Shown here: positions 2,579 to 20,100 of the stretch, piece after piece
How the letters are laid out: every line of letters starts with the position of its first letter
Numbering within the stretch: position 1 is the first letter of the stretch
Position numbers and translations under genes: made by a program
DNA from: a virus
Lineage: Duplodnaviria > Caudoviricetes
DNA: 40,152 nt
IMG/VR virus record: IMGVR_UViG_3300028633_000016
Coordinates: 1-40,152 of that record
Reading direction: 5' to 3' (one strand)
Notes under the pieces: generated by a model
Databases searched by the model: none
What the model saw: the letters and a program-made list of their open reading frames with translations, nothing else
Told to the model about the DNA's origin: nothing

Positions 2579-3144
2579 AAAAGATTCTGTTATTTCTTAC
2601 CGTACTACTTGTCGCAAGTTCATGCACTTGCATGCTTGGACAGATCCCCCCTCAGTACCTCATCGTTGATCAGAACTGTCAGGCGGTTCTGCCAAACTAT
2701 GTCACACAGGTCACGGTTTCCGATAACTGCGAAGTTGCTTCTGTTGTTCAGACCCCGGCTCCCGGATACATCCTGAGCGCGGCAAATCAGTCTGTAGAAG
2801 TCAAGATTAAAGCAACAGACGTTTTCGGCAACTTTTCAGAAATCAGTTTCATGGTAACGGCCAAAGATGATAAACCTCCGGTAATAACTCCGACAGGCGA
2901 TTTGATAGCCGATAACTGGAACGTGATAAATAGTATGTACGATCAGGCCGAACAGATGCTTGCCGAGCAGGAGGCGTTCTTTGATGCGAACTTTGACTGG
3001 GAGGCGGCCGGCATACCCGTTGAGTTAAGACCGATAGACCAGTTTAATACAAAGATGCTGCTTACATGGTCATATCCGAGAGATAACGGGAGAGAGCGAT
3101 TATTTACCTACGTCAGCAAGAATGATACATTCGTAACAAAATGA
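2575..3144 (+). CDS. Lipoprotein with HYR/Ig-like domain
   Basis: MKK + hydrophobic core + VASSC lipobox; SDNC...QTPAPG...ATDVFGN...D..PPVIT HYR-like pattern; ATGA overlap with upstream gene. Confidence 0.65.
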   Translation: MKKILLFLTVLLVASSCTCMLGQIPPQYLIVDQNCQAVLPNYVTQVTVSDNCEVASVVQTPAPGYILSAANQSVEVKIKATDVFGNFSEISFMVTAKDDKPPVITPTGDLIADNWNVINSMYDQAEQMLAEQEAFFDANFDWEAAGIPVELRPIDQFNTKMLLTWSYPRDNGRERLFTYVSKNDTFVTK

Positions 3145-4247
3145 GAAAGATCCTGGTCATATTGCTCCTTCTCCCGGCAATTCTCAAGGCCCAGGTTGAC
3201 TTGTCGTATATCGGCCAGACATTTATTGACACGACCTGCACCAATGTAAATGGCATATCAGTTCCGCGCTCTCAGCTTGCCACGTTCGTATTTAAGAACA
3301 ATTATATGGAGGCCTGCAATACGGGCGGATACATGCTTCAGGCTGGAGTTGAGAACAATACCTATCCCCAGTATGTCAATACCCTGCCAAACAGCCTGAT
3401 CATAGGCAATAAATTCGTGTGGACAGGAGACCAGGATGCCAATACAATTACTCACGGAGTTTTTACCGGATATGAAGCCAATGCGAGGATAATGTACAAC
3501 TATCTTGATTATGTCCCGATGGGTATTATCCGCAAGTCCGATGGCATGACCGATAGTACGGGCGTTGTGGCCTATAACATAATCCGCAACCCGCCGGCAG
3601 TAGGAGTAGTAGTAAAAGGGATGAATGGAGTCCGGATATACAACAATACCTTCTATTCGGAGGATTCAACCTATACAAGTCCTGGCATTGGCACATGGAG
3701 GGGTTTGATTGATGTTTACAAAAACGATAATCCGGTAGCGGATGCGAAATATGTAAAGATCAAAAACAACATCTTCTACACCAAGCGAAGGATCATCAAC
3801 ATCAATGTAATGGATACCGCCTGTCTGCAGGGATTTGAGTGCGACTATAACATATACTGGTGCGAAGAGGGAGAGCCTAGATTTCAGGTAGGGGCAAGCT
3901 ACAAAACTTTGGCCGAATGGAGGGCAATGGGATATGACACTCATTCTCAAATTATGAACCCATACTTTATAAATACGGTAGATTTTGTTCCTTCATGGAG
4001 AATGGAATGGGGTACTCCAACTGAATTTGACATGGGGATAGCGGCAAACGCTGATTGGGAAACAGGCAAGGATATGCCACTTGTAAGACAGAATGGCCCA
4101 TACTGGCAGCAGGGAGCAAGAGTGTATGAAGGAGGCCTGACCATCTTTTACAATAGAGGAAGGGTTGTGTCCGGAGATACAATAAACATTCCGCTGAAGT
4201 CTGGAAAGATTTATGTTGATAGAGGAGAAGTTATCATTCAATACTAA
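3141..4247 (+). CDS. Secreted right-handed beta-helix (pectin-lyase-like) protein
   Basis: Sec signal (..LKA/Q); Asn-rich rungs IIGNKF, IMYNYL, VAYNII, IYNNTF, IKNNIF, DYNIY. Confidence 0.7.
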   Translation: MRKILVILLLLPAILKAQVDLSYIGQTFIDTTCTNVNGISVPRSQLATFVFKNNYMEACNTGGYMLQAGVENNTYPQYVNTLPNSLIIGNKFVWTGDQDANTITHGVFTGYEANARIMYNYLDYVPMGIIRKSDGMTDSTGVVAYNIIRNPPAVGVVVKGMNGVRIYNNTFYSEDSTYTSPGIGTWRGLIDVYKNDNPVADAKYVKIKNNIFYTKRRIININVMDTACLQGFECDYNIYWCEEGEPRFQVGASYKTLAEWRAMGYDTHSQIMNPYFINTVDFVPSWRMEWGTPTEFDMGIAANADWETGKDMPLVRQNGPYWQQGARVYEGGLTIFYNRGRVVSGDTINIPLKSGKIYVDRGEVIIQY

Positions 4248-4965: not shown

Positions 4966-5112
4966 ATGCCAAAGAAACTAGAGAGATGTGTACGCAAGGT
5001 GCAAGCGTCAGGGAAAAGTAAGTCATCTGCCTATGCAATTTGCTCCTCTTCTACTGGCATCAAGAGGAAGAAGGGCGGCGGATGGACACAGGGTAAAAAC
5101 AAGAAGAAATGA
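4966..5112 (+). CDS. Small highly basic 48-aa protein with two Cys
   Basis: MPKKLERCVRKVQASGKSKSSAYAICSSSTGIKRKKGGGWTQGKNKKK*; fills the gap exactly and its stop overlaps the next start (ATGA at 5109-5112). Absent from the ORF track. Confidence 0.7.
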   Translation: MPKKLERCVRKVQASGKSKSSAYAICSSSTGIKRKKGGGWTQGKNKKK

Positions 5113-5780
5113 AGAAGATCCATCTTGTAGAACTTGTATCAGATCATCTAGCCAGCGATATGCCGGACGATATGATCTCCCAGTTTCATCCGGAGATCAT
5201 TAAGAGTGCGCTGAATGTCGCATATAATCAGGCAGTATATCTGACCTGGATGAATGGCAAGAAGTTCAGTGATTACAGTCAGCTTGATGCCTGGACCCGG
5301 ACATACAGGATTGCGCTTACGGAACCGGTTGTGACAGCTACTGCCGTCAGCGGTAACTTGCGTCTCCCGTATCCGCCAATGCAGCTTCCGAACAACATGG
5401 GGATCCGACAGGTCGCCTTGGCTGCAAGTGAAACAATCGCATTTGCATACATGGAGAACACGGCTCTGGCGATATTCAGTCAACTTGATGTTCACTCCAT
5501 TGATACAACACCTTATTTCAGGCTTGAGCAGAACGATAGCGGTGCCGGGATAGCCTCACACATCTTGAAAGTTGGTAAGATTCCAATAGCCTATAACGCG
5601 GCGCCATTAAATGTTGACATAAAAATGATTGTTCCTCTTGATCAGGTCGGGGATTATGATGATATTGCGATACCGGCAGGACAGGAAGACATGCTTGTAA
5701 AGCAGACAGTTGAGTTTTTGAGAACGAAGCTGCCGGAGGATGGAGTCAATGATCTGAACGCCAACAGACCAAACCAGTAA
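5109..5780 (+). CDS. Putative tail ring/structural protein
   Basis: Size, synteny, LP..P.QLP...GI..V motif and helical termini typical of crAss-like ring proteins. Confidence 0.5.
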   Translation: MKKIHLVELVSDHLASDMPDDMISQFHPEIIKSALNVAYNQAVYLTWMNGKKFSDYSQLDAWTRTYRIALTEPVVTATAVSGNLRLPYPPMQLPNNMGIRQVALAASETIAFAYMENTALAIFSQLDVHSIDTTPYFRLEQNDSGAGIASHILKVGKIPIAYNAAPLNVDIKMIVPLDQVGDYDDIAIPAGQEDMLVKQTVEFLRTKLPEDGVNDLNANRPNQ

Positions 5781-5783
5781 GAG

Positions 5784-6560
5784 ATGAGCATAGAGACACC
5801 AAAAATAGCCGGGGTAGTCAGCATAAGGCAGATAGTCATGTCCACCCTCAACAGGATAAAGGACTATACCATGCGCGACTATCTTCATCTTATGCAGATA
5901 GCCATTGAAGGGTACACGGAATTAAATCTGTGGCACATGGACAACATTGAGGTTGTATATCTTCCCTTCAATCAAAACAGCAAGATTGCAACCCTGCCGG
6001 CAGACTTTGTTGACTGGCTCAAGATAGGGATCCCGGTCAATGGGAAGCTAAAGGTGTTGACCAGACACGACAAGATCCTTCTGCCACGAACTTCAACAGA
6101 CGGACTGGAAACATTCAGCAATACTGATGCGGCAGACACAACCAATGCAGAGTCTCTGGTATATTTTTCAGACCACATTCGCTGTGGTCAGTTTGTCGGA
6201 GGTCTTTTTGGTATGCCGGGAGGCATCAGCGAGGCTTCCTACCGCTTTGATAGGGAAAGAAGGACACTAGTGTTCACTGGAACCATTACGGACAACTACA
6301 TAGTCCTGGAATATATTTCTGCCGGAGTAAATCTTACTGGATCCACAACAATACCCAGAGAGGCAGAACCGGCATTGAGAACATACATTCTATGGCAGAT
6401 GGTCGAAAATGATCCAAGGGTATCCATGTCGGAGAAACAGAGACGGGAGGATAACCACGACAAGGCCGTTGCAATGCTCAGAGACTTCCAAGACACCTTT
6501 ACCGCAGAAGAATACAGGCAAATGTTATTTGGGACCTCAAGACAAACGCCGAAGAGATAA
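5784..6560 (+). CDS. crAss-like tail ring/adaptor protein
   Basis: LPADFVDW.KIG, IVLEYIS.G, IP..AE.AL..YI motifs; TAATG coupling to muzzle gene. Confidence 0.65.
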   Translation: MSIETPKIAGVVSIRQIVMSTLNRIKDYTMRDYLHLMQIAIEGYTELNLWHMDNIEVVYLPFNQNSKIATLPADFVDWLKIGIPVNGKLKVLTRHDKILLPRTSTDGLETFSNTDAADTTNAESLVYFSDHIRCGQFVGGLFGMPGGISEASYRFDRERRTLVFTGTITDNYIVLEYISAGVNLTGSTTIPREAEPALRTYILWQMVENDPRVSMSEKQRREDNHDKAVAMLRDFQDTFTAEEYRQMLFGTSRQTPKR

Positions 6561-9500
6561 TGCAGAGCAAGGATCTCCATAGGTTCAATGTAGGGATGAA
6601 TAAGGATGATTCTCCGGCTGATCTTCAGCCTGGGGAATATACTGATGCCCTGAATATGCGAATAGCCTCAAGCGACGAGCAACAGGGCTTTGGCATTATG
6701 GAGACATTACAGGGAGAAGTTGAACTTATAATCAATGTTTCTGCAGCCTACTACGGAGGAGCCATCGGGGGCCAGTTCATATACAGCGGCTATGAAGAGG
6801 TTACGATAGGCAACCAGGTGTGGATGAAGCGCAATCTGGACATTGCTTATCCCGGAAGCCGAGTTTATAATAATGATGAGGCCCAGAGAGCCATCTACGG
6901 AGGCCTATACCATCACGAACACCTTCACGATCCATTCCTTATTCCTGCCGGGTGGAGAGTGCCTACCGAGGCCGATGTTGATGAGTTGCTGACATTCTTG
7001 GGAGGTGCAATGCTAGCCGGAGGGTTATTGAAGGAGTTTGATACACCACACTGGCAGAGTCCGAATACTGGGGCAGAAGATCTGTATGGATTCCAAATGC
7101 TTCCCGGAGGAATGTTCGATTTAGTATTCAGTCTTCTAGGATTCAAGGGGAGCTTCTGGATGCTTGATGAGGCCGCTCCGGAGCCACCGGTTGCACTGGA
7201 TCCGACGGTAATTGGGGAAACCTTCTTCCTTGGATGGTGGGATCCGTCAGTAGGGGCAGACGGCTATTACCTGACAGTATCCACAGATCCTCTGTTTGGA
7301 TCAACCGTGCCTGGATTTGACGGACTTGATGTAGGCAACGTCACTCACTACAACGTAACCGGTCTGACCGATGGCGTGACATACTACTATTATGTTGAAG
7401 CCTACAATGATATAGGAGCAAGCGCGCCATCAAACATCATTACAGTTATAACCGGCAATGAAGCCGTCATTATTGGGTCCCAAATATGGATGACCAAGAA
7501 CGTAACAGTTGCTCTTCCGGACAGCTTTGTCTATGATGATGACGAAGGGAACAGGATCCTTTATGGGGGGATGTATCCGGCCTCCCTCTTTGATGCAGTT
7601 GAAGCAGCACATCCCGGCTGGATAGTACCATCGCTGGCTGACTGGCAGGCGCTTATTGACTTCGTGGGAGACTCAACTGATGCCGGAGGTATTTTAAAGG
7701 CCATTGCCGGCGGCTGGGATCCGCCAAATACGGGTGCCATTGACACCTATGCTTTTGAGGCAAGATCTACCGGATATTATATCAGCGGCATATATGCCCT
7801 TCTTGGTCAGTATGGGTTCTACTGGACCAGGACACCGGGAACTGCCGGCACAACCTACTACATGCTCTTCAGCTACGATAATGATGATCTTACTGCATCC
7901 CTGACGGCAGACGAAACATGTATTGCCATAAGGCTCATTGCTCAATATACGGCCCTTGATGCTCCGGTAGCACTACCGGCTACAAATATTACAGAAACGT
8001 CATTTACCGCAAACTGGGAAGGAGTGACAGGGGCAACCGGATACAGGTTGACGGTCGCTACCGATGCTGCATTTACGGATATTGTTGCAGGCTTTAATAG
8101 TCTTGATGTAGGGAACGTGCTTACTTATGATGTTCCGGGACTGGATATCGGACATGAATACTTTTATCGACTCACGGCTTATAATCCTGTTTATACAAGT
8201 GCATATTCAAATGTAATAGAAGTCAATCTCCCGATATCATGGACAGTGACTTCAAGGGGTGATGGATCTGGTGTTGCGGTGATGTCCATGAGAGTAACGG
8301 AACCACTTACGCTTACATTCATTGACGGAACGGCGCGGTTCTACTCTGATGCTGCTGGCACCCTTAATGAATCCACAACAAAAGTTGTTAATGCAACCGG
8401 CACGCTTCAGCCGATTTATATAAAAGCTCCATCCGGAAGTTCAACCATGCAATTTTCAAGTGCATTGTCATTATACGGATTTGGACATGCGCTCGGCCTT
8501 GGCTCAACCAACCCGGCATGGGGACGATCTACCGGAGGATCCTATGATGCAAATACTCCAGGCCTTGATGCTTCAAACTGGTATTTCCCGAATTGTATAG
8601 ACATTGGCGTTGCTTATGCTCCAATAATTACACTATTCTCTGACCTTAGCGATCTTTCCCCAAATCTCGTACGGGCAACTCTTGTTAGTGGGTCCGCTAT
8701 TACCGGAGATGTTTCTGATATAGGCAGTTCATGTGAGTTATTCGACATTGGATCTAATGCAAATATAACTGGAGATGTTGCGGATATTCCAGACTCAATG
8801 TTATACTTCGAACTTGGATCCGGAAATACATTACACGGGGATATTGCCGACCTTCCTCCAAACATACTGGATTTTAGAGTTTACGGATCAAACACTATTA
8901 CCGGAGACATCGGCAATGCTCCAGTATCTGCAGAATACTTAAACATTCACGGTAACAATACCCTGTATGGTGACATTTCGGGAGTTGGAATAAACGTAAC
9001 TGGCCTTGACATCGGTGGATTAAATACGCTCGACGGAGATCTCGCAGACCTAAGCGTAGGGATTGCCAGAGTCTGTGTTAAAGGTCATAACACAATTTAT
9101 GGAGATATTGCGGATATCCCATCTACTGTCACATACTTTTACATCGGAGGAGACAATACCATTGAAGGAAATATCACAGATCTAAAGACCGGCCTGGGAA
9201 CCTTTATAATAGCTGGGCTAAATACTATCACTGGAGATATCGCTGACATCAAGGCCACCATCACATATTTTTTCGTTGCAGGCTACAATGCTATTGCCGG
9301 GAATATCGCAAACCTAAAGACTAGTATGCGAACATTCTCTGTGTCTGGCTTTAATACGATTACTGGAGATATCCAAAACTTTCCAACAGGTCTAACCAGC
9401 GTACATCTTGCAGGATGGAATACTCTCTATGGCAACATTGAAAGCTTGCCGGCCGCTACTATAAGTTCATTTTCAATATATGGATACAACATCATCGGTG

Positions 9501-9883
9501 GAACAGTGAACGCTACATTATATGCAAATAATGTAATAAGGATTCTTGGGGTTGGGGGATATAATACTATTGCCGGCGACCTGTCGTTTATTCCGGTTAG
9601 CATTACTCAGTTTTCTCTCTCAGGATATAATGTTGTTGATGGATATACGGCCGGAAGATCATTCCCGGCAGCAATGAATTATTTGAATGTTGCTCCAATA
9701 GGTCCTGGAGGATTAAGTTCAACTGAAGTGGATAATCTTCTTATTGACCTGTCAACAAAAGTATGGCCGGCGGGAAACAAGTCAATTTCACTTCTTGGAA
9801 CAAATGCTGCGCGCACGGCAGCATCAAATATAGCAGTAGCGACTCTTATGTCACTTGGGGTTATTGTACAGACAAATCCATAA
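6560..9883 (+). CDS. Muzzle/stabilization protein fragment 1 fused to adhesin array: muzzle N-terminus, half FISUMP, FN3, full FISUMP, FN3, LRR-like solenoid
   Basis: GMNKD...L.PGEY.DALN.R muzzle-type N-terminus; IGNQVWM..NL / YGGLY / P.GWRVPT / YGF..LPGG FISUMP motifs twice; two FN3 (about 7178-7453 and 7955-8233); 22-aa repeats; LSSTEVDNLLIDL cap. Confidence 0.75.
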   Translation: MQSKDLHRFNVGMNKDDSPADLQPGEYTDALNMRIASSDEQQGFGIMETLQGEVELIINVSAAYYGGAIGGQFIYSGYEEVTIGNQVWMKRNLDIAYPGSRVYNNDEAQRAIYGGLYHHEHLHDPFLIPAGWRVPTEADVDELLTFLGGAMLAGGLLKEFDTPHWQSPNTGAEDLYGFQMLPGGMFDLVFSLLGFKGSFWMLDEAAPEPPVALDPTVIGETFFLGWWDPSVGADGYYLTVSTDPLFGSTVPGFDGLDVGNVTHYNVTGLTDGVTYYYYVEAYNDIGASAPSNIITVITGNEAVIIGSQIWMTKNVTVALPDSFVYDDDEGNRILYGGMYPASLFDAVEAAHPGWIVPSLADWQALIDFVGDSTDAGGILKAIAGGWDPPNTGAIDTYAFEARSTGYYISGIYALLGQYGFYWTRTPGTAGTTYYMLFSYDNDDLTASLTADETCIAIRLIAQYTALDAPVALPATNITETSFTANWEGVTGATGYRLTVATDAAFTDIVAGFNSLDVGNVLTYDVPGLDIGHEYFYRLTAYNPVYTSAYSNVIEVNLPISWTVTSRGDGSGVAVMSMRVTEPLTLTFIDGTARFYSDAAGTLNESTTKVVNATGTLQPIYIKAPSGSSTMQFSSALSLYGFGHALGLGSTNPAWGRSTGGSYDANTPGLDASNWYFPNCIDIGVAYAPIITLFSDLSDLSPNLVRATLVSGSAITGDVSDIGSSCELFDIGSNANITGDVADIPDSMLYFELGSGNTLHGDIADLPPNILDFRVYGSNTITGDIGNAPVSAEYLNIHGNNTLYGDISGVGINVTGLDIGGLNTLDGDLADLSVGIARVCVKGHNTIYGDIADIPSTVTYFYIGGDNTIEGNITDLKTGLGTFIIAGLNTITGDIADIKATITYFFVAGYNAIAGNIANLKTSMRTFSVSGFNTITGDIQNFPTGLTSVHLAGWNTLYGNIESLPAATISSFSIYGYNIIGGTVNATLYANNVIRILGVGGYNTIAGDLSFIPVSITQFSLSGYNVVDGYTAGRSFPAAMNYLNVAPIGPGGLSSTEVDNLLIDLSTKVWPAGNKSISLLGTNAARTAASNIAVATLMSLGVIVQTNP
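8693..9630 (+). repeat. About 14 degenerate 22-aa (66-nt) LRR-like repeats, consensus NTITGDIADLPxxxxYFxIxG
   Basis: Directly visible periodicity in the translation. Confidence 0.85.
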
Positions 9884-9886
9884 GGA

Positions 9887-11641
9887 ATGGGATTATTAGG
9901 ACGCATATTATCATTCAATCATAACAGTGCCGAGGCGGTGAAGGAAACCGTCCTGAAGACCGACTATTATTCCATTAGGCTTATAAAGGACGCTGATCAT
10001 GTCAACTCCGTATATGATTCAAGCATCACGAATATTCTTCTTAATGGCAAGTGCATTGATCCGGAGACAAGGTGCCTGTATCTATTCTATATCGATACGT
10101 TCTTTAATGCAGCTTGGATCATTGAAATCAATATTGATACTCGTGTCCAGACGGTTGTTCTCTTTGATCGCTACAATGATATAGGATTTAATCCGAAGAA
10201 CAAAATATATAATGCCAGGGTCGTTTACGGAAGGATTATCTGGACCGATAATGTTAATCCGATCTATCAGGTTGACATTAAGAGGGCGAAGAACTCTTTT
10301 CTGTATGGCATTGGATACAACCAGAACAATAACATCCAGGACTGGGAAGAGGACATCTATTACTATCCGGATCAGATTGTGGCAGAATATCAGCATTTTT
10401 ATCGCTGTCTTGTCGCAAACATTGGATTCAGTCCGCTTGCATATACCGGTTATTGGCAGCAGTTGTGCAGGATAGAGGATGCTTACTATTCGATCAAGAT
10501 AGAGAACTTCTACTTTGCTCCTATGCCACCGCTTCTGCCGCCAGTTGTAACGTATCTTCAGGATGATACTAGGAGGCTGAACAACCTTCGCCAGACATTA
10601 TTTCAGTTTGCATACAACTACATTTATATGGACTACCGGGAGAGTACATATTCCCCGGCAAGCATAGTTCCGATGCCAGATGGAGAGGAGGAGGTTGCCA
10701 CAGGCCAGCAGACCGAAGACATCTCAAAAAATAACTGTCTCAAGATCCAAGTAAATACTGGAGGCGAGGAGGTACGGAAGATCCGGATCATTGGCCGCAG
10801 TAGTGCCGATACTCTCACATGGTTTTTGGTAGAAGAGATTGACAAGTTTGATCTTGAGGAGGAACGATATTCAGCATCTCCTATAAATGACGTAGGAATG
10901 CTGACGCTTACGATAACCCTTCCATTACCGATCGTTACCGGAGAGATTGTTTCAAACGCAGTACAGATCCCGATTGCACTTTCATCCAATGCCGGGAACC
11001 AGAGAAACCTGTATTTGATGGCCACGAACACAGACTTTGAATGGGCATCGTTTGAGTTTACTGATTTCTATATTTTGACAACAACAATAACTCACTCAAC
11101 GGTTGGCAATCGTTTCTTTATAGAAAATATTCCCACCTGGTTAGGAATTGTGGATATGTCGGATATGTCCGCCGTTATAAATGGATCCGAATTTAGAAGC
11201 GGAGTACAGCTTGGCTTGTTTCCAACGTCAGAAAACTTTGGGGCAGAGAGGAGTGGGCAGATAAGGCTATACGATACTTCTGCGTACGAGAACGAACTTT
11301 TTCTTGAGGTAGTGCAACGCGCCGGCGTTACTCCGGTTAGTGTTGAGGTGGAGGTTATTCCCGGAGAGGTACATGATCTTGAGGTTAATAATAACTCTGG
11401 GAGCAATACGCCGGGATATACCTATGTAACATTCCAGTTCTTTCCAATGCACCCGGATTATGGAGGCTTTGTGGCATTCGATATGCAATATGAGTTTCTA
11501 TTAAATGGGGTTTCAAACGGGACTGGATTTGTTACAGTATATAACACCCTGTTATGTAACACCGGGGATCACATGCTGGTGGCATCAGCCCCCGGAGATG
11601 TGGTTACAGTTCACCTCTGGGAGAATCCGAAACCAACATAA
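9887..11641 (+). CDS. Muzzle fragment 2: FISUMP C-terminal strand, beta-propeller region, CBM-like insert, C-terminal BACON/Ig-like appendage
   Basis: Starts ...KTDYYSIRLIKD (FISUMP terminus); IIWTDNVNP and FQFAY.Y.Y.D.RES.YSP muzzle motifs; W...YY...IV..Y..FYRCL..N....P....YW module at about 10343-10465; P.WL...N.G.ERSG.I...VQ.A BACON-like region. Confidence 0.7.
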   Translation: MGLLGRILSFNHNSAEAVKETVLKTDYYSIRLIKDADHVNSVYDSSITNILLNGKCIDPETRCLYLFYIDTFFNAAWIIEINIDTRVQTVVLFDRYNDIGFNPKNKIYNARVVYGRIIWTDNVNPIYQVDIKRAKNSFLYGIGYNQNNNIQDWEEDIYYYPDQIVAEYQHFYRCLVANIGFSPLAYTGYWQQLCRIEDAYYSIKIENFYFAPMPPLLPPVVTYLQDDTRRLNNLRQTLFQFAYNYIYMDYRESTYSPASIVPMPDGEEEVATGQQTEDISKNNCLKIQVNTGGEEVRKIRIIGRSSADTLTWFLVEEIDKFDLEEERYSASPINDVGMLTLTITLPLPIVTGEIVSNAVQIPIALSSNAGNQRNLYLMATNTDFEWASFEFTDFYILTTTITHSTVGNRFFIENIPTWLGIVDMSDMSAVINGSEFRSGVQLGLFPTSENFGAERSGQIRLYDTSAYENELFLEVVQRAGVTPVSVEVEVIPGEVHDLEVNNNSGSNTPGYTYVTFQFFPMHPDYGGFVAFDMQYEFLLNGVSNGTGFVTVYNTLLCNTGDHMLVASAPGDVVTVHLWENPKPT

Positions 11642-11653
11642 AAATAAAGAGAT

Positions 11654-12082
11654 ATGGCAAGCATTGTACCAAGATTTGTAAAGAAGGAGATAGTGGATGG
11701 ATGGGTAGCAGAGAACCTGTATCTCATGCTACTCTCCAGTGCATATACTCCTAATGCCACAACGCATCAATATGTATCCCAGGTATCTGCGAATGAGGTT
11801 GTGGATAGCGGAGGCATATATCCGGTTGGAGGTGTCCCGCTAGCAGGAAAACTTCAGGGATATGATCCGATCAGCGTGAACAATGCCTTCCTTGATGCGA
11901 ACAATGTAAGCATCGGGCCAGGCGCAACTCTCAATTATCGTTATGGTGTGATCTACCGCAATACTGGAAACCCGGCAACATCCCCAATCAGATGCGTCAT
12001 TGATTTTGTGACAAATCAGATTGTGACAAATGGGACAACTGTAATCAACTGGAACGCACTTGGAATAATTTATATTTCGTAA
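11654..12082 (+). CDS. Phage minor structural (fiber/adaptor-type) protein
   Basis: LMLL.S.YTP....H......NEV...G.Y..GG..L, F.DA..V, R.GVIY, IDF.....T.G...I.W...GI pattern of a widespread ~140-aa virion family. Confidence 0.6.
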   Translation: MASIVPRFVKKEIVDGWVAENLYLMLLSSAYTPNATTHQYVSQVSANEVVDSGGIYPVGGVPLAGKLQGYDPISVNNAFLDANNVSIGPGATLNYRYGVIYRNTGNPATSPIRCVIDFVTNQIVTNGTTVINWNALGIIYIS

Positions 12083-12083
12083 G

Positions 12084-14762
12084 ATGATTTACGGACATAA
12101 CCGAAATATTGACATCAATTTCTACAATGATCGGGTAAAGGAGTTCATTGCAGAGGAGGGATTTACTAATCCTTTCAGCTATGTGCCTATTAAGGCAGCG
12201 CACATGGAGGTTGTGTCCGGCAAGTCCGGGAGTGCAGTTGTTTTCGGAAATATTACCGAAGGATATGATCCGGTTGAATTGAGGGTTGAAGTCGAAAAGA
12301 ATTATACTGACATTGCTACTGAGGCTGCAAATATTCCGTTGCTGGTGGATAAGTATATCTCCGGGATATATTACTATGACTGGGATCATCCTCTTAATAC
12401 CTCTGGGGGATTAAATCTTCAAATAAGAGTAGTGAGAGTATATCTAATTCAAATCCCATATTATGTCAGGGAAGATGCGTTTTATTTCATAAATGTAGAA
12501 GGAGTAGGATCTGTCTCATACCAGGTGGGGGCAGGGGAAACCGGCCTGGATGTAAAGACTGCTCTGGAGGCAGCACTAACTGCATCTCCCGTATTTGGTC
12601 CGAGTAGTTTTGTGGCAGGGCCAAATCCATTAACGATCTATTTTTATAATCTCAGCAAGATCTACTGGGGTGGGACATTGGCAAATGAGTGGCCTGTAAT
12701 AACAGACGAGATGATCTTCCCGTATAATGTTACGGCCTACTGCCTAGATCTTGGTCTTACAACGAAATTTCCAATCCTCAAATATGGAGCAACACATGAC
12801 TTCGGGATTGTCTATAAGGATAAAATAGGCCGGAGATGTTCGGTTCTTCGCACGAAGAACATGAGTTTCTATCTGCCATTCTACTGCGAGGATCCGGCCA
12901 TACTTATGAATACCATTGCTTCGGTTACATTTAAGCTGAACCATCTTCCTCCCGTTTGGGCAGAGGCATACGAGATTGTTTATGCCGGCAATGCCTCAAT
13001 GGACTACTGGCTTCAGATCCGGATAAATGACATAAACGATCTGGGAGATGATAGGTTTGCTATAAACATCCAGGATAACCTTAACTGGACCAGGGAAAAC
13101 AACATGCGTTGGAAAGTGCCTGATTATGTATGGGAAGACGGCGACCGGATACGGCTCATTGGTACGATAACGAACGCTGGAGGAGTAGTAACGGTATATA
13201 CAACCGACGAAGGACATGTTTATGATTATGAGATCGAGGAAACGGCAGCAAGCGAACTTGCAGAGGAGATTGGAGGTGACTGGCTTATTGTTCAAGCAGC
13301 AATAAGACCGGCGTCCTTCGACGGAGAAACTGATATCATCGCGGAGATATATCGTCCGAAAAAGGGCATAGGAGTTTCCGTATATCAAGGAACCGGGATG
13401 GCGTTTGAGATTGGTGTTGATGAAAATGGAAACCGGTATCATAAGGGGGATGTTGATCAGGTTTTGAGTTCGGCCGGAGGATCGCTTACTCCTGCGGAGA
13501 TTTATAACACCGCAAATGATTCATGGAAGTATGAGCGCATAAGCTATGTATCAGAAGCCGTTGATCCGGCAGGCTCATTCTGGGCATTTTGGGCAGAGAG
13601 TCCATTCCCTAGTGACTGGTGGAGAGACATTACCAAATTAACATCTCAGGGTTGGCCATTCCTCTATGACATCATGCAGCAGCAGGTTACTCTGGGAGAA
13701 AGGCTGAGGCACGGAGGATTCCTTATCGAAGGTACCCGGATCAATAACATTGCCTGGTTTACCTATGAAAAGTTCATGGATCTTCCACAGAGATATGGTG
13801 ATATCACAGCATTGAGAGAGATTGGCTTTACTCTAAAGGTTCTGCAGACACATAAGGAGTCGAGTATCTATCTTCAGCGCGTACAGACATTCAGCGCAGA
13901 TGGAGGCGAAGGGGACTATAGCCTAATCAACAATCTTCTTGGTACATTCCGTCCGCTTGAAACAGACTTTGGTTGCCAGCATCCAGACAGTGTAATGGTC
14001 AATGACCGCAACTTGTATTACTGGGACAATAATGAGGGCAAGTTTATAAGATCTTCTCCGAACGGACAGATAGCTATCTCTGACTATAAGATGAGGAGAT
14101 GGTTCAGGGATCTCCGAAACTGGATTGAGGCGCTTGAGGGTACAGATAAATTGCTCGTCAATACAGGCGCTAACGTGGAGCATAATGAAGTATGGGTCAC
14201 ATGGAATATCAACGGAACAGTATGGGGAGCGATCTTCAGCGAAACAAACGGCCGATGGATATCCAGACTTGATCAGATCACTGAATCTTATGTTCACCTG
14301 GGGCAATGGTTCGCGCACATGTACAAACAGCGTCTATACATCATGAATGAGGATGAAGGACAGAACTGGCTTGAGTGGGCCAATGTTCCTACCTATGCTG
14401 ATGTACAGTTTGCCGGCAACATAAATGTGGCAAAGAATAAAGTATTTAATTCCCTGGCAGTTTATGCAGACCATCAGCTTGACTGCCTGTCCCGATTTAT
14501 TATAATCCCGGCAGAAGCATCATTTGAACTTATGGAAAGCTATGTTGCGATATGGAATAAATCAGAGGGAATTTATTATGGCCGAATACTTAAAGATCAA
14601 AATAGTCCTGGTAGCTTTGTATCCGTACATGACCAAACAATGAATGGAAGGGAAATGAGGGGTAGGTATTGCCTAGTCCGGTTAAGGACTAACGAGCATG
14701 AGGAGAAGGTCCGCATCTTCTCTGTCATAGTTATATCAACAGATAGTGAAAGAAGTGCATAA
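12084..14762 (+). CDS. Muzzle/stabilization protein fragment 3 (C-terminal portion)
   Basis: FYND, VP.KA...EV....VFGN..EGYD, FGIVY.D..GR, YG.I..L, FGCQHPDSV, YYWD...G, KVFNSL, MRGRY motifs. Confidence 0.75.
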   Translation: MIYGHNRNIDINFYNDRVKEFIAEEGFTNPFSYVPIKAAHMEVVSGKSGSAVVFGNITEGYDPVELRVEVEKNYTDIATEAANIPLLVDKYISGIYYYDWDHPLNTSGGLNLQIRVVRVYLIQIPYYVREDAFYFINVEGVGSVSYQVGAGETGLDVKTALEAALTASPVFGPSSFVAGPNPLTIYFYNLSKIYWGGTLANEWPVITDEMIFPYNVTAYCLDLGLTTKFPILKYGATHDFGIVYKDKIGRRCSVLRTKNMSFYLPFYCEDPAILMNTIASVTFKLNHLPPVWAEAYEIVYAGNASMDYWLQIRINDINDLGDDRFAINIQDNLNWTRENNMRWKVPDYVWEDGDRIRLIGTITNAGGVVTVYTTDEGHVYDYEIEETAASELAEEIGGDWLIVQAAIRPASFDGETDIIAEIYRPKKGIGVSVYQGTGMAFEIGVDENGNRYHKGDVDQVLSSAGGSLTPAEIYNTANDSWKYERISYVSEAVDPAGSFWAFWAESPFPSDWWRDITKLTSQGWPFLYDIMQQQVTLGERLRHGGFLIEGTRINNIAWFTYEKFMDLPQRYGDITALREIGFTLKVLQTHKESSIYLQRVQTFSADGGEGDYSLINNLLGTFRPLETDFGCQHPDSVMVNDRNLYYWDNNEGKFIRSSPNGQIAISDYKMRRWFRDLRNWIEALEGTDKLLVNTGANVEHNEVWVTWNINGTVWGAIFSETNGRWISRLDQITESYVHLGQWFAHMYKQRLYIMNEDEGQNWLEWANVPTYADVQFAGNINVAKNKVFNSLAVYADHQLDCLSRFIIIPAEASFELMESYVAIWNKSEGIYYGRILKDQNSPGSFVSVHDQTMNGREMRGRYCLVRLRTNEHEEKVRIFSVIVISTDSERSA

Positions 14763-14773
14763 AAAGTAAGATT

Positions 14774-15508
14774 ATGGATCCATTAACAATCGCAAGTTTG
14801 ATAGGTGCCGCAACATCCGCAGTTCAGGGAATCTGGGGGATGGGGCAGGAGATGAAGGCCGCAAGGCTTGAGAGGGAGAATCCCCGGCCTACGGCAACAA
14901 TGGCTCCGGCCATAAAGGAACTTCTGGGATATTCTTATGCACGAACACTTGACCGTGATATTCCGGGAGGAGAGATCTATCGTAACCGCATAGCCGGTGC
15001 AACCGCATCAGGAATAAGAGCAGCATCGGCAATGGGTGGTGGAGCAGAGGCCTACGGCGCACTTGACCGCATGGTCAGGGGAGGACAGGAAGCTTATTCT
15101 GATATGGCCGTAAAGGCCGCAGAACAGGCCTACAATGCCCAGGGAAACTATATGAGTGTCCTTGAGGGGCCGGCATACCAAGAGCAAAGAAGGGTTGACT
15201 ACTGGAACAAAGAAATGCCATATCTCCAGGCGGCACAAGCAGCGCAGGCGCTGAGGGAATCCGGAGGACAAAACATCATGGCTGGCATTAAAAATATTGC
15301 CGGAGTTGCCACATCTGCACTTGGGGGGAACGATATCCTCTCCGCATTACTTGGAAGAGGAGAAGGAGGATCTCCGGCCGTATCTGAATCTGAACTCGCA
15401 AGGATTATCGCTGGACTTACCAAAACAGGGGAAAGGCGCGGTCCGGTACAGACAGGATTATGGCCTTCACAGACGAAACTTAATATTCCAAAGTTCGGGA
15501 TTAAATAA
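14774..15508 (+). CDS. Putative ejected/cargo internal virion protein
   Basis: MDPLTIASLIGAA Gly/Ala-rich hydrophobic N-terminus, helical body; directly after muzzle. Confidence 0.55.
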   Translation: MDPLTIASLIGAATSAVQGIWGMGQEMKAARLERENPRPTATMAPAIKELLGYSYARTLDRDIPGGEIYRNRIAGATASGIRAASAMGGGAEAYGALDRMVRGGQEAYSDMAVKAAEQAYNAQGNYMSVLEGPAYQEQRRVDYWNKEMPYLQAAQAAQALRESGGQNIMAGIKNIAGVATSALGGNDILSALLGRGEGGSPAVSESELARIIAGLTKTGERRGPVQTGLWPSQTKLNIPKFGIK

Positions 15509-15519
15509 AAGCTACTGAA

Positions 15520-17166
15520 ATGGCAAAGGGTAAGATAGATCCGGCTTTTGTTGCGGCACCTTTTTTCGGGCCTTCCTCATATGATCCGGTACAGGCGGTT
15601 GAGAACGTCAAACAGCAACGGATAAAGTATGCTGAAGCAATCAATCAGAAAAAGGCCAAGGACTATGAGGAGGGAAAGAAACTTATAGATCTTGATATCA
15701 AGGCATGGGAGGACGAAAAAGGATTTGAGGAAATCTATTCAGACCTGGAGGATCTCAAAAGCCAGTATGTCGAACTTGGGAGCAAGGGATTTAATATATA
15801 TGATCCGAGCAGTCAGGCAGAGCAGAAGATCGCAAAGGCATTTCGGACCAGACTTGCCGATCTTAAACAGAAACACGATGTATGGCAGAGGGAAAAAGCA
15901 ACCATTGATGATGTTGAAAAGATCCTAATGCAGGAACAAGCCAAGCCAGAGGAGGAGCAGGATATCGACATCCAAGCTACAAATGAAAAGATCAAAGCAT
16001 GGAAAGAGGCTGAAGATGGGATACTTGGAAGGGCGCAGGCCTCAAAAGAACTCATTGTAGGGAAGGCAAGGCCGGTTGATGCTGGCAAATATTTCCAAGC
16101 GGCTATCCCTAAGTTTGTGCCAGGGACAGATGAAACTGTTAAGCGATTTATAGTAGACGAGACTACCGGGAAGTGGACGAAGACTACATGGCAGGGAGTT
16201 GATCCGGCCAGAGCCAAGGCCGGTATTATGAAAGCATATAAGGCCGCGCCAACCAATGTAAGAAATGCCGTTGATAAGATGTATGAGGCTGACCCGGACA
16301 AGGGTGTGATGAATAAGGAGGACTGGCTTGTTCAGACCTACGGCCCTGCATATCCCACTAAGGAAAGGAAAGAGTCCGGCATGGGATCAACCGGAGGAGG
16401 AGCCGGCGGAACAGGACTGCCGGCAAAAGATCAATCAGGGAAATATCCGGTACAGCCCCAGGTAAGAGATATCTATTATGGTACCTCAAGTGCATCGGGA
16501 GATAAGGTTGTTCCGTTTGAGGGTATCGGAAGAGTACCCATTGGTGGCTTATTTGGCTTCAGGAACATTACGATCATGGGATCGGCCAATAACATCAACT
16601 CAGTAACGGGGGCCGTAGAGGGTAAAGGAAAGGCTATTCCAGCCGTTCCCGTTGAGGCCAACATGTATCCGGTGGCGACAAAGGACATATCTATTCAAGT
16701 CCGGGATCCTAAAGGGACTGACATAATTACAGAAACAGTTAGGACTGGGGAAAGAATACCATTGCATGTGCTAGAGCAGATGCGTCTGGCTAATGTGGAT
16801 GCCAAAGAGAAAGGCCTTCCTCCGTCATACACCTATCAGTATAAGCCATACGTTCATTTTGGACTGGCCTACAAGCAGGTGAAGGAAGGACAGGAGGCTC
16901 CGAATGGCATGAGCCAGTACAATATTTACATGCCAGACTCATCAGGAAGAACTCAGTCATACACTGAAACCTCTATTGTTCCTTATGATGAGGTAAGGCA
17001 GGATCTCTTTGCAGCAGCCAAAGAAAACAAACAAGACTGGACTCCGTACGACAAGTATTTCCGGGAGATGGAGGCGCAGCTTAACAGCACTCAGAATAAA
17101 GTAAACAGTCTGTTTGAGGATAAAACCAAAACAACTACCGATCTTTACAAGGCTCTTGAGCAATAG
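15520..17166 (+). CDS. Putative ejected/cargo virion protein
   Basis: Charged coiled-coil N-half, Gly linker; lies between the first cargo gene and the giant gene. Confidence 0.45.
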   Translation: MAKGKIDPAFVAAPFFGPSSYDPVQAVENVKQQRIKYAEAINQKKAKDYEEGKKLIDLDIKAWEDEKGFEEIYSDLEDLKSQYVELGSKGFNIYDPSSQAEQKIAKAFRTRLADLKQKHDVWQREKATIDDVEKILMQEQAKPEEEQDIDIQATNEKIKAWKEAEDGILGRAQASKELIVGKARPVDAGKYFQAAIPKFVPGTDETVKRFIVDETTGKWTKTTWQGVDPARAKAGIMKAYKAAPTNVRNAVDKMYEADPDKGVMNKEDWLVQTYGPAYPTKERKESGMGSTGGGAGGTGLPAKDQSGKYPVQPQVRDIYYGTSSASGDKVVPFEGIGRVPIGGLFGFRNITIMGSANNINSVTGAVEGKGKAIPAVPVEANMYPVATKDISIQVRDPKGTDIITETVRTGERIPLHVLEQMRLANVDAKEKGLPPSYTYQYKPYVHFGLAYKQVKEGQEAPNGMSQYNIYMPDSSGRTQSYTETSIVPYDEVRQDLFAAAKENKQDWTPYDKYFREMEAQLNSTQNKVNSLFEDKTKTTTDLYKALEQ

Positions 17167-17168
17167 AT

Positions 17169-20100
17169 ATGGAGAAGAAACGCAAGAAAGAAGAGGTTCC
17201 GGAACAGGCACCGCAGATCCCGGTTGAACAACCAACGCAGGATTATACTCCCGATCAGCAAAAGGTAAGGAAAGATCTCTACTTTAGGGATAGGGATACG
17301 TTCTTTGCAGACGAAAGGCTATATCGCCAGGATAGCGTCACGCAACGGGAAACGCTTGGGAAATTCTTCGATAACTTTTCCGTGTCGTATTACAATGACA
17401 TGGGCCTCACTGATGTCAATACCATTAAGGAGTTAAGGCAAAAGTTTATTGACGATAACATTGGCAAGTTAAGTCTTGCAAAAAAAAAAGAGGTCGAAGA
17501 ACAACCCACAGAAGTTCCGGAAGTCGATTATCCAGACTTTGTGGACAAATCTCAAATCTCAAATCAATTCTATTCAAGACAGGACATAATTAAGCCTGTC
17601 ATCAGCGATACCTATCTCAACAAGGCAAATGAAGGATACAAGGCCGTTCGTGCGGAAGAGGAGAAGATAGCCGGCGTTGTTCCGAAGCTTCTTGAACACC
17701 CCGATTACAACTATATTAAGACCAATCCAGAACAGTATGTCCTACTGGAGGGATTCGGAGAAAAGAAGAAGGTTGAGAAATACCTGAAAGAGCAGGGGAT
17801 TCCGAAGGAGGAGCGTAGCCGGATACTGGATATGCTTCATTATACTGCCACCCGTAGCAATATTGAGAAATTAAAAGCTGCATGGGATCCGGAGAAACTT
17901 AATTTGGCAGTAGATCAGGAGGCCGTTCCCTATGTTAAGGATGTCAAGCCAGGAACATTCATTGATCCTCTTACCGGTCAGAGGAAGCTGCAACCTGAAA
18001 CCGAAGAGGATGCGGATCAATTAGCGCTTATCCAGAAATATATGCAGGAGATCCGGAACGGAGCAATCGCTTCATCCCCGGACAATCCTCTGTCAAAAAA
18101 GAAAGAGCAGATTGATCAGAAACAAGATCAACTAGTTGAGGCATATCAACAGGTAGAAGAACTCCGAAAGGTTGCCCAGGATTCACTTAAAGGAGCATTG
18201 ATAGCTACTAGTCCGGAGGTGGATGCGTGGAAGAAAGCACAGATAGATCTCATTAAAATGCAATCAGATCTTGAGAAAGAGATCAATGATTTCAATGAGG
18301 CTATTGATACTGATAAGAATATAGCAGGAGCTATAACCGGAAATCCCTCCGATAAGCAGAGACTGCAGCAGATAGTCCAGGATTCATTTATTGAAAAGAA
18401 GTTTTGGGATAAAGAATATGACAGACTCAATAAGATATACAAGGAGACTTCAACTCCTTATGCAGATCCAGAACAGGCCGCAAGGACTATAGGGTTCCGG
18501 CCGGCACCAATATCTCCGGCAATGGAGAACGCCAGACGTATGAAGTATGAGAAAACAGCCATGTTTGAGGCCGCATCCCGTATGTATTACGCCAATGAGG
18601 GACCGATGGATATCAAGAAAGATGCAAAATATCAGCTTGAAGTATTGGGTGACGCTATCCTGAAGGGAGTGTCTCATCAGGATATCCTTGGGGACAAAGT
18701 AACGGAGCAACAGGTTCTCATGAAAATGGGCGAACTTGGAATGAGAGAGGGTCTTCTTACTGATGAGGAATTAGACTATATCACTCCCGGATTCCTTGAG
18801 CAAGTAATGTCATTCTCAGGATCCTTGGCGGCAGATCTCCCCATGCTTATGCTTGTCGGCGGAGCAACGAATGCCGTAAAGTCCATTCCTCTTATCAGCA
18901 AGTTACGCTATGGCCATAAGGTCATCCAGAACCCTGTATTGAAGGAGGCCGGCAAGCCTCTGACCAGGACACTCCGGTTCGCAGACCCGGTGCCTACCGG
19001 ATGGAAGGTCATCAGCGAGGTCAAGCCAACCGCTATAAGCAAGCTGAAGGGTACGATTATCTCATCTGTTATTGACGAAGCGGCATTTACGGGGATGATG
19101 GGGATGACTCCGGGGTTTATGACCGGTATCAATACTGCTCACTTATTTCTCCCAGAGGTTAAGCTGAAGGGAAAATGGGGAAATATCCTTCAGCCATTTA
19201 TAGACACAGTATATAAGAGTGCCATCGGTGCAACAGCCGGGATGGAGGCCGGTCTTGCAACAACCGCTATGGCTAACGCCCTGCTCTCTGATAGTACCAT
19301 CAAGCAGGAGATGGATAATCTCTATCCTAATCTTGATGAGGTAACAAAGAGGGTGCTGGTAGAACTTACCGTCAATGGGATCTTCTTTGGTGGCATGGGA
19401 GCATTGACAACCGGAAGCCAAAAGGCAATGACAGCACCCCTTGGGGCTAAATGGGGTAAGTCTGGAGGTACGTCCTGGACGGCGTATTTTAATCCAAAAA
19501 TGAGGGCCAGAGTATTTGAGGCCGCGAGAACCGCAGACTCAAAGGGATATACTGATACTGCGAAGGAACTATACCGGTGGCTTGACATGACTAAGGAGCC
19601 GATCACAGGCAAAGATCTGAAAATGCAGAGGCTCGCAGAAGTTGAGGGATATGCGAGATCACTGCCGGTTGGTACTCTCCGGATGGCCGTTGATGCCAAT
19701 AGGGATGCGATCCGTGTTCTGGAGAACCTGAATAATGATCCTAATTTTGACGGATATGTGACCATCAAGACATCTTCCGCAAAGGATGTAAAGCCTACGG
19801 ATGTTGTTCAAATGGACGGCAAATATTATGAAGTAAGCGAGATTGCCAAGGGGAAAGATGGTAAGCCGATTGAGTTTACTCTTATCGATATTGAAAGTGG
19901 CCAAAAGACAAAGGCATTAACAGAAGATGTCAAGACCGACATCTACTATAAGGTAGGCAGCCGCCTTGAACTTGGTCTTCGACTTGAGAACCATTACGAG
20001 AGACTACAAGTCTTCAACGAGGTACTTGCCGACAAAGGATTCTATGGCAAGGAGGCCCAGGCGCTCATGGCCGGGCCACCGCCTCCAAAAGGATTAGGCC

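Follow-up and report, generated by a model that had tools for sequence, protein, structure and literature searches.

A crAss-type tail muzzle apparently divided among three phage genes, with a predicted split-domain clasp and exchangeable appendages

Introduction

The muzzle is the gate of the phage tail and has been described as a conserved single chain. In phiCrAss001 it is gp44 (PDB 7QOK/7QOL; PF25731/PF25729), a large protein of the tail tip that comprises a ring-joining domain, a propeller and Ig-like domains (PMC10172136). A nozzle built from two chains is known from the Pseudomonas podophage A1002, in which gp39 and gp42 rebuild one nozzle by strand complementation, as seen by cryo-electron microscopy (PMC13730344). 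The broken chain of A1002 has a fibre-docking extension, and fibre dimers are carried on a rope; these dimers, gp40 and gp41 (~140-170 amino acids, aa), are of the GP4 gp80 type and are numbered between the nozzle genes (PMC13730344). Here we analyse a contig of 40,152 nucleotides (nt) from a Caudoviricetes virus (IMG/VR record IMGVR_UViG_3300028633_000016; the whole stretch is called the window), in which the muzzle very probably consists of three gene products that reassemble by strand complementation, are joined by a clasp made from a split FISUMP domain, and bear modules, exchangeable and likely to bind the host surface, on two of their C-termini.

The window shares with gp44 the muzzle fold, recognised through an intact homolog, and differs in arrangement. 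Where gp44 is one chain, the window phage has three genes and the FISUMP domain inserted into the muzzle is itself split; variation in the window's clade is found on two free C-termini, close to where the muzzle sequence begins. The apparent likeness to A1002 is that separate chains tile one nozzle or muzzle, here judged from sequence and from a co-fold of chains 1 and 2, and that a small protein, the product of open reading frame (ORF) 3, is encoded between muzzle parts in 27/28 loci and belongs to a shared fold group, without a family match. In contrast, A1002 as described has two chains in a small nozzle of T7/P22 size, whereas the window has three chains and a muzzle of the crAss type. The A1002 break lies elsewhere, at propeller blades 1-2 and the platform, and its rope is long and N-terminal to the C-part of the nozzle, whereas the window has one or two strand/proline motifs after the second muzzle piece. 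The available text on A1002 describes neither a second, non-muzzle domain split as a clasp nor exchangeable lectin, FN3 or LRR arrays, and the A1002 host belongs to a different phylum. We infer that the splits in A1002 and in the window's clade are of independent origin. A three-part muzzle or a split FISUMP domain was not found in the literature searched, which excluded most subscription papers and supplements; PMC7886860 and PMC10136315, in their available portions, use 'split' for other things. A split nozzle is thus already known from A1002, and what is new here is the three chains, the crAss-type muzzle, the other break points, the split accessory clasp and the exchangeable cassettes.

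Results

By profile comparison, the tiling of one muzzle by three pieces is beyond chance. Against a hidden Markov model (HMM) built from 21 intact muzzle homologs, ORF1 aa 1-59 match model positions 1-59 (26 bits; independent E-value 3.6e-10), ORF2 aa 49-330 match 67-359 (213 bits) and ORF4 aa 3-891 match 358-1247 (648 bits), and ORF3 has no match. We call these segments piece A (6560..6736), piece B (10031..10876) and piece C (in 12084..14762), all on the + strand. BLAST gives the same picture, with ORF2 and ORF4 each matching 21 of 21 intact proteins in that order, and matches to PHROG 14478 (164-278 for piece B) keep the same piece order. The AlphaFold2 model of the intact homolog P0107 (predicted local distance difference test, pLDDT, 87.8) has the crAss001 tail/muzzle entries 7QOL/7QOK as its top Foldseek matches (E 1-2e-36, TMq 0.57-0.58), and its next-best match, among other nozzles, is at E 2e-14 or weaker. 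The overall muzzle fold is therefore assigned through P0107, which all three pieces match. The link from the family to gp44 is drawn from the fold search only, since searches of the PDB by sequence with ORF4, ORF2, the ORF3 alignment and the intact alignment returned no muzzle or fibre match. PF25731 appears on ORF1 aa 9-53 (positions 7-50) at E 0.0065, under its cut-off; it reaches E 3.6e-5 in the split-type homolog P0013 and passes the cut-off in the intact P0105. These comparisons bear out the proposal, made in a preliminary description from the letters of the window, that the pieces tile one muzzle homolog colinearly. The label 'crAss-like' used there is a loose one: for piece B and the upstream gene, the closest cultured matches are in Pervagoviridae and in Panino. 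By its position, piece A would be the N-terminal ring-joining segment; among 14 members compared, 10 of its columns, all within aa 12-53, are invariant. Piece B would comprise the first propeller blades, a CBM5/12-like loop and most of the first Ig-like domain.

The single polypeptide of a crAss-type muzzle is replaced here by three ORFs in a block of four, which lie head-to-tail on the + strand: ORF1 (1107 aa, 6560-9883), ORF2 (584 aa, 9887-11641), ORF3 (142 aa, 11654-12082) and ORF4 (892 aa, 12084-14762), the last being piece C with neither end extended. Muzzle-type motifs occur in order over the separate ORFs at the coordinates first reported, with GMNKD..GEY.DALN in ORF1, WTDNVNP and FAYNYIYMDYRES in ORF2, and FYND..MRGRY in ORF4. 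The count of three ORFs stands for those that hold muzzle pieces, but the block has a fourth, ORF3, which had been overlooked. Similarly, the junction letters read as given, TAAGGAATG at 9881-9889 and TAAGATG at 12080-12086, but the TAA before the ATG at 12084 is the stop of ORF3 and not of piece B. Nor does ORF2 resume the muzzle at its own ATG, as had been thought: its aa 5-37 are the end of a FISUMP domain, and the muzzle restarts near aa 45-49. The boundary of the first fragment at 7171 is a true edge between conserved and variable sequence, because ORF1 aa 81-204 are the FISUMP N-terminal part conserved in the clade, but its muzzle-homologous part is just aa 1-59.

The first break cuts a FISUMP domain (Fib_succ_major, PF09603) between ORF1 and ORF2. 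The N-terminal part of the domain is ORF1 aa 81-204 (6800..7171, +), where Pfam matches positions 1-157 of 187 to aa 81-206 (protein score 110.6 bits; cut-off 33.9), and the remaining end of the domain is found in ORF2 aa 5-37 (9899..9997, +). In homologs as well, the first FISUMP copy stops early and second copies reach position 187. Pfam run on eight ORF2 N-termini alone left the FISUMP end unseen, and it was detected with a local profile built from seven complete copies. With this profile, FISUMP ends at model position 150-160 in 14/15 ORF1 homologs (131 in L015), and the ORF2 N-termini match positions 152-188 in 22/22 cases at 1.6-10 bits (median 5.0), against 4.9 bits for the best of 420 shuffles and 3.9 for the best of 168 other windows. 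An earlier idea, that the extra N-terminus of ORF2 duplicates piece A, was dropped once this segment had been mapped to the FISUMP end. A co-fold of ORF1 48-204 with ORF2 1-140 gave an ipSAE of 0.90, versus 0.00 for the best of three controls, and placed ORF2 aa 5-37 on ORF1 aa 78-203 with partner pLDDT of at least 73 and at least 69% of contacts common to runs; the mark used is passed by 116/157 solved pairs and 2/215 mismatched pairs. ORF2 aa 5-37 are thus predicted to complete the FISUMP fold of ORF1, and the co-folding proposed for the muzzle chains succeeds for chains 1 and 2 through their FISUMP halves, that pair being its scope.

Natural single-chain forms of chains 1 and 2 also exist. 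P0158, P0162, P0189 and P0178 (the protein of locus L073) keep 160-280 residues inside the FISUMP loop, and P0138 resembles a fragment of such a form. On a quick tree the four require at least three separate changes inside the split clade, for which repeated re-fusion is the best explanation; an ancestral fusion of 1 and 2 is not favoured, because the single-chain forms nest in separate split lineages. The distant single-chain muzzle P0201 (3893 aa) has an insert of ~2,080 residues, without a clear Pfam family, at the same A/B boundary, and that loop is therefore permissive. Upstream of the intact muzzle of L092, a 224-aa gene (L092:5619-6308) aligns with the FISUMP profile as a permutation, positions 46-188 preceding 2-47.

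Beyond the break, ORF1 continues into variable appendage 1 (7172..9883, +), which in the window runs through an FN3 domain (~7178-7459), a complete second FISUMP (~7463-7945), another FN3 (7958-8224) and an LRR-like solenoid of 22-aa repeats (~8705-9649). No more than 34% of it is covered by any of 14 others. Among ORF1 homologs, the stretch past the FISUMP break measures 155-900 aa and is made up of FN3, FISUMP, Lcl_C, LRR or BNR-type domains. Appendage 2 follows piece B in ORF2 (10877..11641, +) with a short beta-strand/proline motif (~10895-10996) and then ~215 aa of a recurrent type. ORF2 tails span 40-900 aa and are mainly FN3 arrays or of the type common to the window and 12/20 others, one homolog of which carries BACON. 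Close strains have exchanged appendage 1 at the FISUMP break. L030 and L072 are 99.7-100% identical in ORF2 and 96.6% in the ORF1 core, with appendages 33% identical, and P0158 and P0162 have flanks 86% and 91% identical around unrelated inserts. Judged from domain type, the freed C-termini likely carry modules that bind the host surface. Fib_succ_major has been grouped with C-type-lectin targets of diversity-generating retroelements (DGRs), with little functional data (PMC5758913). Scans of 28 window proteins found no reverse transcriptase family as a sign of a DGR; template/variable repeats were not searched and the genome is incomplete.

The second break falls in a hairpin. In the intact P0089, the last strand that piece B matches is followed directly by RVYGANRNIYVYFYND, and the start of ORF4 reads MIYGHNRNIDINFYND; in the P0107 model the site is the turn between strands 351-358 and 371-377. 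IG1 occupies 163-292 in the crAss001 muzzle (PMC10172136), and because of this domain order the first strand of chain 3 may complete the first Ig-like domain of chain 2. ORF3 (11654..12082, +; phrog_644) lies directly 5' of piece C in 27/28 loci and was not found within the flanks of eight loci fetched by the intact alignment. Its model (pLDDT 93.6) has a putative fibre-dimer/arm-segment fold, resembling GP4 fibre I gp80 (8JOU), the phi812 arm segment (9FKO/9EUF) and the Bxb1 tail-tip chain R (9D93). The top seven rows of the VIA fold search are all virus tail or neck proteins, among them Bxb1 9D93_R (Z 10.9), phi812 baseplate chain 9EUF_b (Z 8.1) and GP4 8JOU (Z 6.6, root-mean-square deviation 4.4, 111 aligned). 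The best Foldseek match has E 1.5e-3, with the phi812 arm segment second, and ORF3 has no sequence match to the chain-like fibre or arm proteins. A strand/proline motif follows piece B in one or two copies in 22/24 loci, L049 and L075 being without it. Compared with the chain-like fibres, the window has only these one or two candidate docking motifs, and the ORF3 dimer and its binding to a rope are putative.

Several loci vary around this break. L049 is the sole locus without the 142-aa gene (L049:7904-9996), having 618-aa and 70-aa genes instead and an ORF2 tail of 40 aa. L002 (L002:6762-9551) has an extra 929-aa gene of the pectate-lyase-type beta-helix between ORF2 and ORF3; over its first 340 aa it shares 45% identity with a 368-aa gene that the window has upstream of the tail genes (3141-4247). 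Piece C of L009, L012, L016, L031 and L080 has an extra insert of ~110-130 aa around model position 730-770. Internal variation of this sort has been reported for crAss muzzles, whose length varies through insertions into the crass and IG2 domains (PMC10172136).

Within one clade, both breaks are fixed. Of 120 proteins found in a search with ORF4, 82, including the window's own, start at the Met position of ORF4, 32 have an N-terminus of intact type and six are other fragments; likewise, 68/77 homologs of piece B share the N-terminal start point of ORF2. Contig searches gave 96 loci; a scan of viral contigs with a single sequence had given one locus, and alignments were needed for the rest. 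Once loci with an identical 100-aa chain 3 stretch and the record of the window itself (L019) had been removed, 28 loci, the window included, hold piece B and the start of C. All 28 are split at break 2, with core identity among these distinct split loci of ~50-65%. Seventeen loci cover all three pieces: 16 are split three ways, among them L018, whose piece A scores under the HMM threshold but is visible in the sequence, and in L073 a single ORF encodes chains 1 and 2. In a tree of 47 rows, like the other a quick tree, the split C chains form one clade (21/21; SH-aLRT 100) sister to 17 intact proteins, with nine more distant single-chain relatives outside both groups. Related phages thus provide both uninterrupted alleles and differing inserts at the same site, the comparison that had been proposed. 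A fused B+C member of the split clade was seen neither among 77 longer B homologs (588-2000 aa) nor among four longer C homologs (1562-4460 aa, all 23-25% identical), which is weak evidence of absence in each case. Runs that contain window DNA are labelled activated sludge and anaerobic digester. A Bacteroidota host is weakly hinted at by two matches whose contigs had been assigned to Prolixibacteraceae and Bacteroidales genome bins.

The muzzle block is preceded by genes of 233, 223 and 258 aa, two of which match PHROG virion proteins, and followed by genes of 244, 548 and 5078 aa. The same neighbours flank a single gene of 1248-1250 aa in the intact L089, L090 and L092, which places both forms in a syntenic tail module. 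The 5078-aa large polyvalent protein (17169-32405) has DarA_C, SNF2/strawberry-notch-type helicase and LPD38 domains by Pfam and is likely injected cargo. Genes for virion RNA polymerase cargo are a feature of Crassvirales (PMC10172136); Pfam found no polymerase family in the 5078-aa protein, and about half of the genome is likely absent from the contig. Terminase, capsid and portal genes were not identified in the 40 kb. A caspase-like peptidase (PF00656, E 3.6e-19) is encoded at 916-1698 among likely lysis genes. The window has no tRNA and no Rfam family, and no excess of promoter-like sites (18 vs 21 in shuffles) or terminator-like sites (5 vs 7.6).

The closest cultured matches for piece B and the upstream gene are Cellulophaga phage phi38:1 (Pervagoviridae) and Maribacter phage Panino, at 24-29% over parts, and ORF4 had no match to cultured phages by tblastn. 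Both genomes (72-77 kb) have the same order around the muzzle (phi38:1 gp097; Panino CDS0075): two or three genes of ~230-290 aa, the muzzle, two mid-size genes and a very large protein. The phi38:1 gp097 is a single chain of 1324 aa. The Panino muzzle (PP540027.1, CDS0075/CDS0074; L098:6521-10434) matches the profile at 12-881 in a 946-aa gene and at 888-1188 in another frame starting near its end; this break, at a different and C-terminal site, may be a frameshift, a sequencing error or a split.

Discussion

Our comparisons provide a rationale for how a muzzle could be made from three chains. In an ancestor, a permissive loop after residue ~60 would have received a FISUMP domain; further inserts would have entered a loop within this domain, and there the chain would have broken. 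The second break would lie in the hairpin that leads into the final strand of the first Ig-like domain, a domain that the N-terminal strand of chain 3 (..NIDINFYND) would complete. By analogy with the fibre dimers on the GP4/A1002 rope, the 142-aa ORF3 protein may form dimers that bind the strand motif following piece B. As a hexamer, the muzzle would present each appendage six times. The earlier proposal, that three chains reassemble and that each break frees a C-terminus bearing a swappable appendage, gains support from the tiling, the conserved starts, the swap at strain level and the co-fold of chains 1 and 2. We also lean somewhat towards a broader view, a plug-in display in which a split lectin-type plug-and-socket holds cassettes of ~150-900 aa (FN3, LRR, Lcl, BNR, FISUMP) that are swapped between near-identical strains to change host, in which the second break bears a miniature chain-like fibre of 142-aa dimers, and in which the site toggles between split and re-fused.

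Several points weigh against a three-chain muzzle with host-binding appendages. The phage is uncultured, and the assembly of its muzzle is predicted from genes and models. The window's own pieces fall below the Pfam cut-offs for crAss_MUZ and crAss_MUZ_C, ORF4 matches neither of the two, and no window piece matches the PDB by sequence. Single-sequence scores for the FISUMP C-part are weak, at 1.6-10 bits. The co-fold covers the FISUMP halves of chains 1 and 2, chain 3 being outside it, and supports binding without showing it, because halves of a split domain can pass through likeness to solved folds; its alignments were also self-built. For ORF3, GP4 gp80 is only rank 6 with a Z within the range of common arrangements, the nearest named family in the Atlas, again GP4 gp80 (score 0.86), is a lead only, and PF23140 matched 0/26 members by Pfam. 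The strand/proline or 'rope' motif was defined after the sequences had been seen, and FN3, LRR and FISUMP domains suggest receptor binding without showing it.

The preliminary description had also raised the alternative that the inserts are removed at the DNA, RNA or ribosome level, by recombination, splicing or bypassing, giving a single-chain muzzle together with appendage isoforms. The positions are clean, break 1 in a domain loop and break 2 in a hairpin, such that precise removal would restore an intact frame, and group I introns and inteins often interrupt Crassvirales core genes (PMC7886860). Yet we judge removal very unlikely: the ORF1-to-ORF2 frame is mixed among 15 loci (3 in frame, 4 at +1, 8 at +2), the start Met of ORF2 and of ORF4 is conserved, and re-fused forms retain the insert in place. 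Stop-codon readthrough as a general mechanism is likewise ruled out, because these frames differ among loci. Repeats at the insert edges do not exceed background, the longest shared word at break 1 being 6-12 nt in 14 loci (control medians 6-8, maxima 8-13; only L030, with 12 nt, exceeds its own control maximum) and at break 2 6-7 nt; the window has no Rfam match at gathering score, and the ORF1/ORF2 homolog inserts scanned contain no Hint or endonuclease Pfam family. The search for junction-spanning sequences that had been suggested found no joints in four runs; at 7171, the left edge of insert 1, an RNA-library contig (X15 record 1, 7036-7476) continues across unjoined. RNA cover is patchy, comes from two contig runs whose RNA-library contigs may be DNA, and is thin at the breaks, 9883-9887 and 12082-12084 being spanned by no listed RNA contig.

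A different possibility is that chains 2 and 3 form a working muzzle on which ORF1 merely docks as an accessory fibre, its 59-aa head being a tag. Piece A is indeed short, and the predicted ORF1-ORF2 interface is in FISUMP rather than in piece A, of which aa 1-47 lay outside the co-fold job. This arrangement appears improbable, given that model positions 1-59 are supplied by no other sequence, that piece A has its 10 invariant columns, and that the ring-joining domain and propeller are core parts in crAss001 (PMC10172136). Misassembly, or a decaying, pseudogenised gene, would be conceivable for a metagenomic contig, and errors occur in such data: three related loci have lone in-frame stops within otherwise continuous muzzle frames (L032:4272 TGA; L083:2788 TAA; L091:703 TAA), perhaps through recoding or read errors. 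We regard this explanation as having next to no likelihood. The same breaks recur in 28 distinct loci, which excludes misassembly, and 5000-16000 is covered, with a single base difference and no joint, by contigs of 38.5 kb from runs X4 (2019) and X9 (2022), although the window itself may derive from both.

The reading that we prefer, three chains that reassemble into one muzzle, bears on the biology of the tail gate and on how it is recognised in genomes. The three-chain clade shows two positions at which the muzzle fold tolerates breaks and large payloads. It also points to the gate protein, and not to separate fibres, as the site of host-range determinants. At ~125 + 33 residues, the two FISUMP parts are a predicted small self-assembling pair that can be tested. 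For annotation, the clade carries a warning, as its three muzzle genes resemble unrelated adhesins and hypothetical proteins. Taken together, the clade and A1002 suggest more than one origin for nozzle fission beside fibre-dimer genes.

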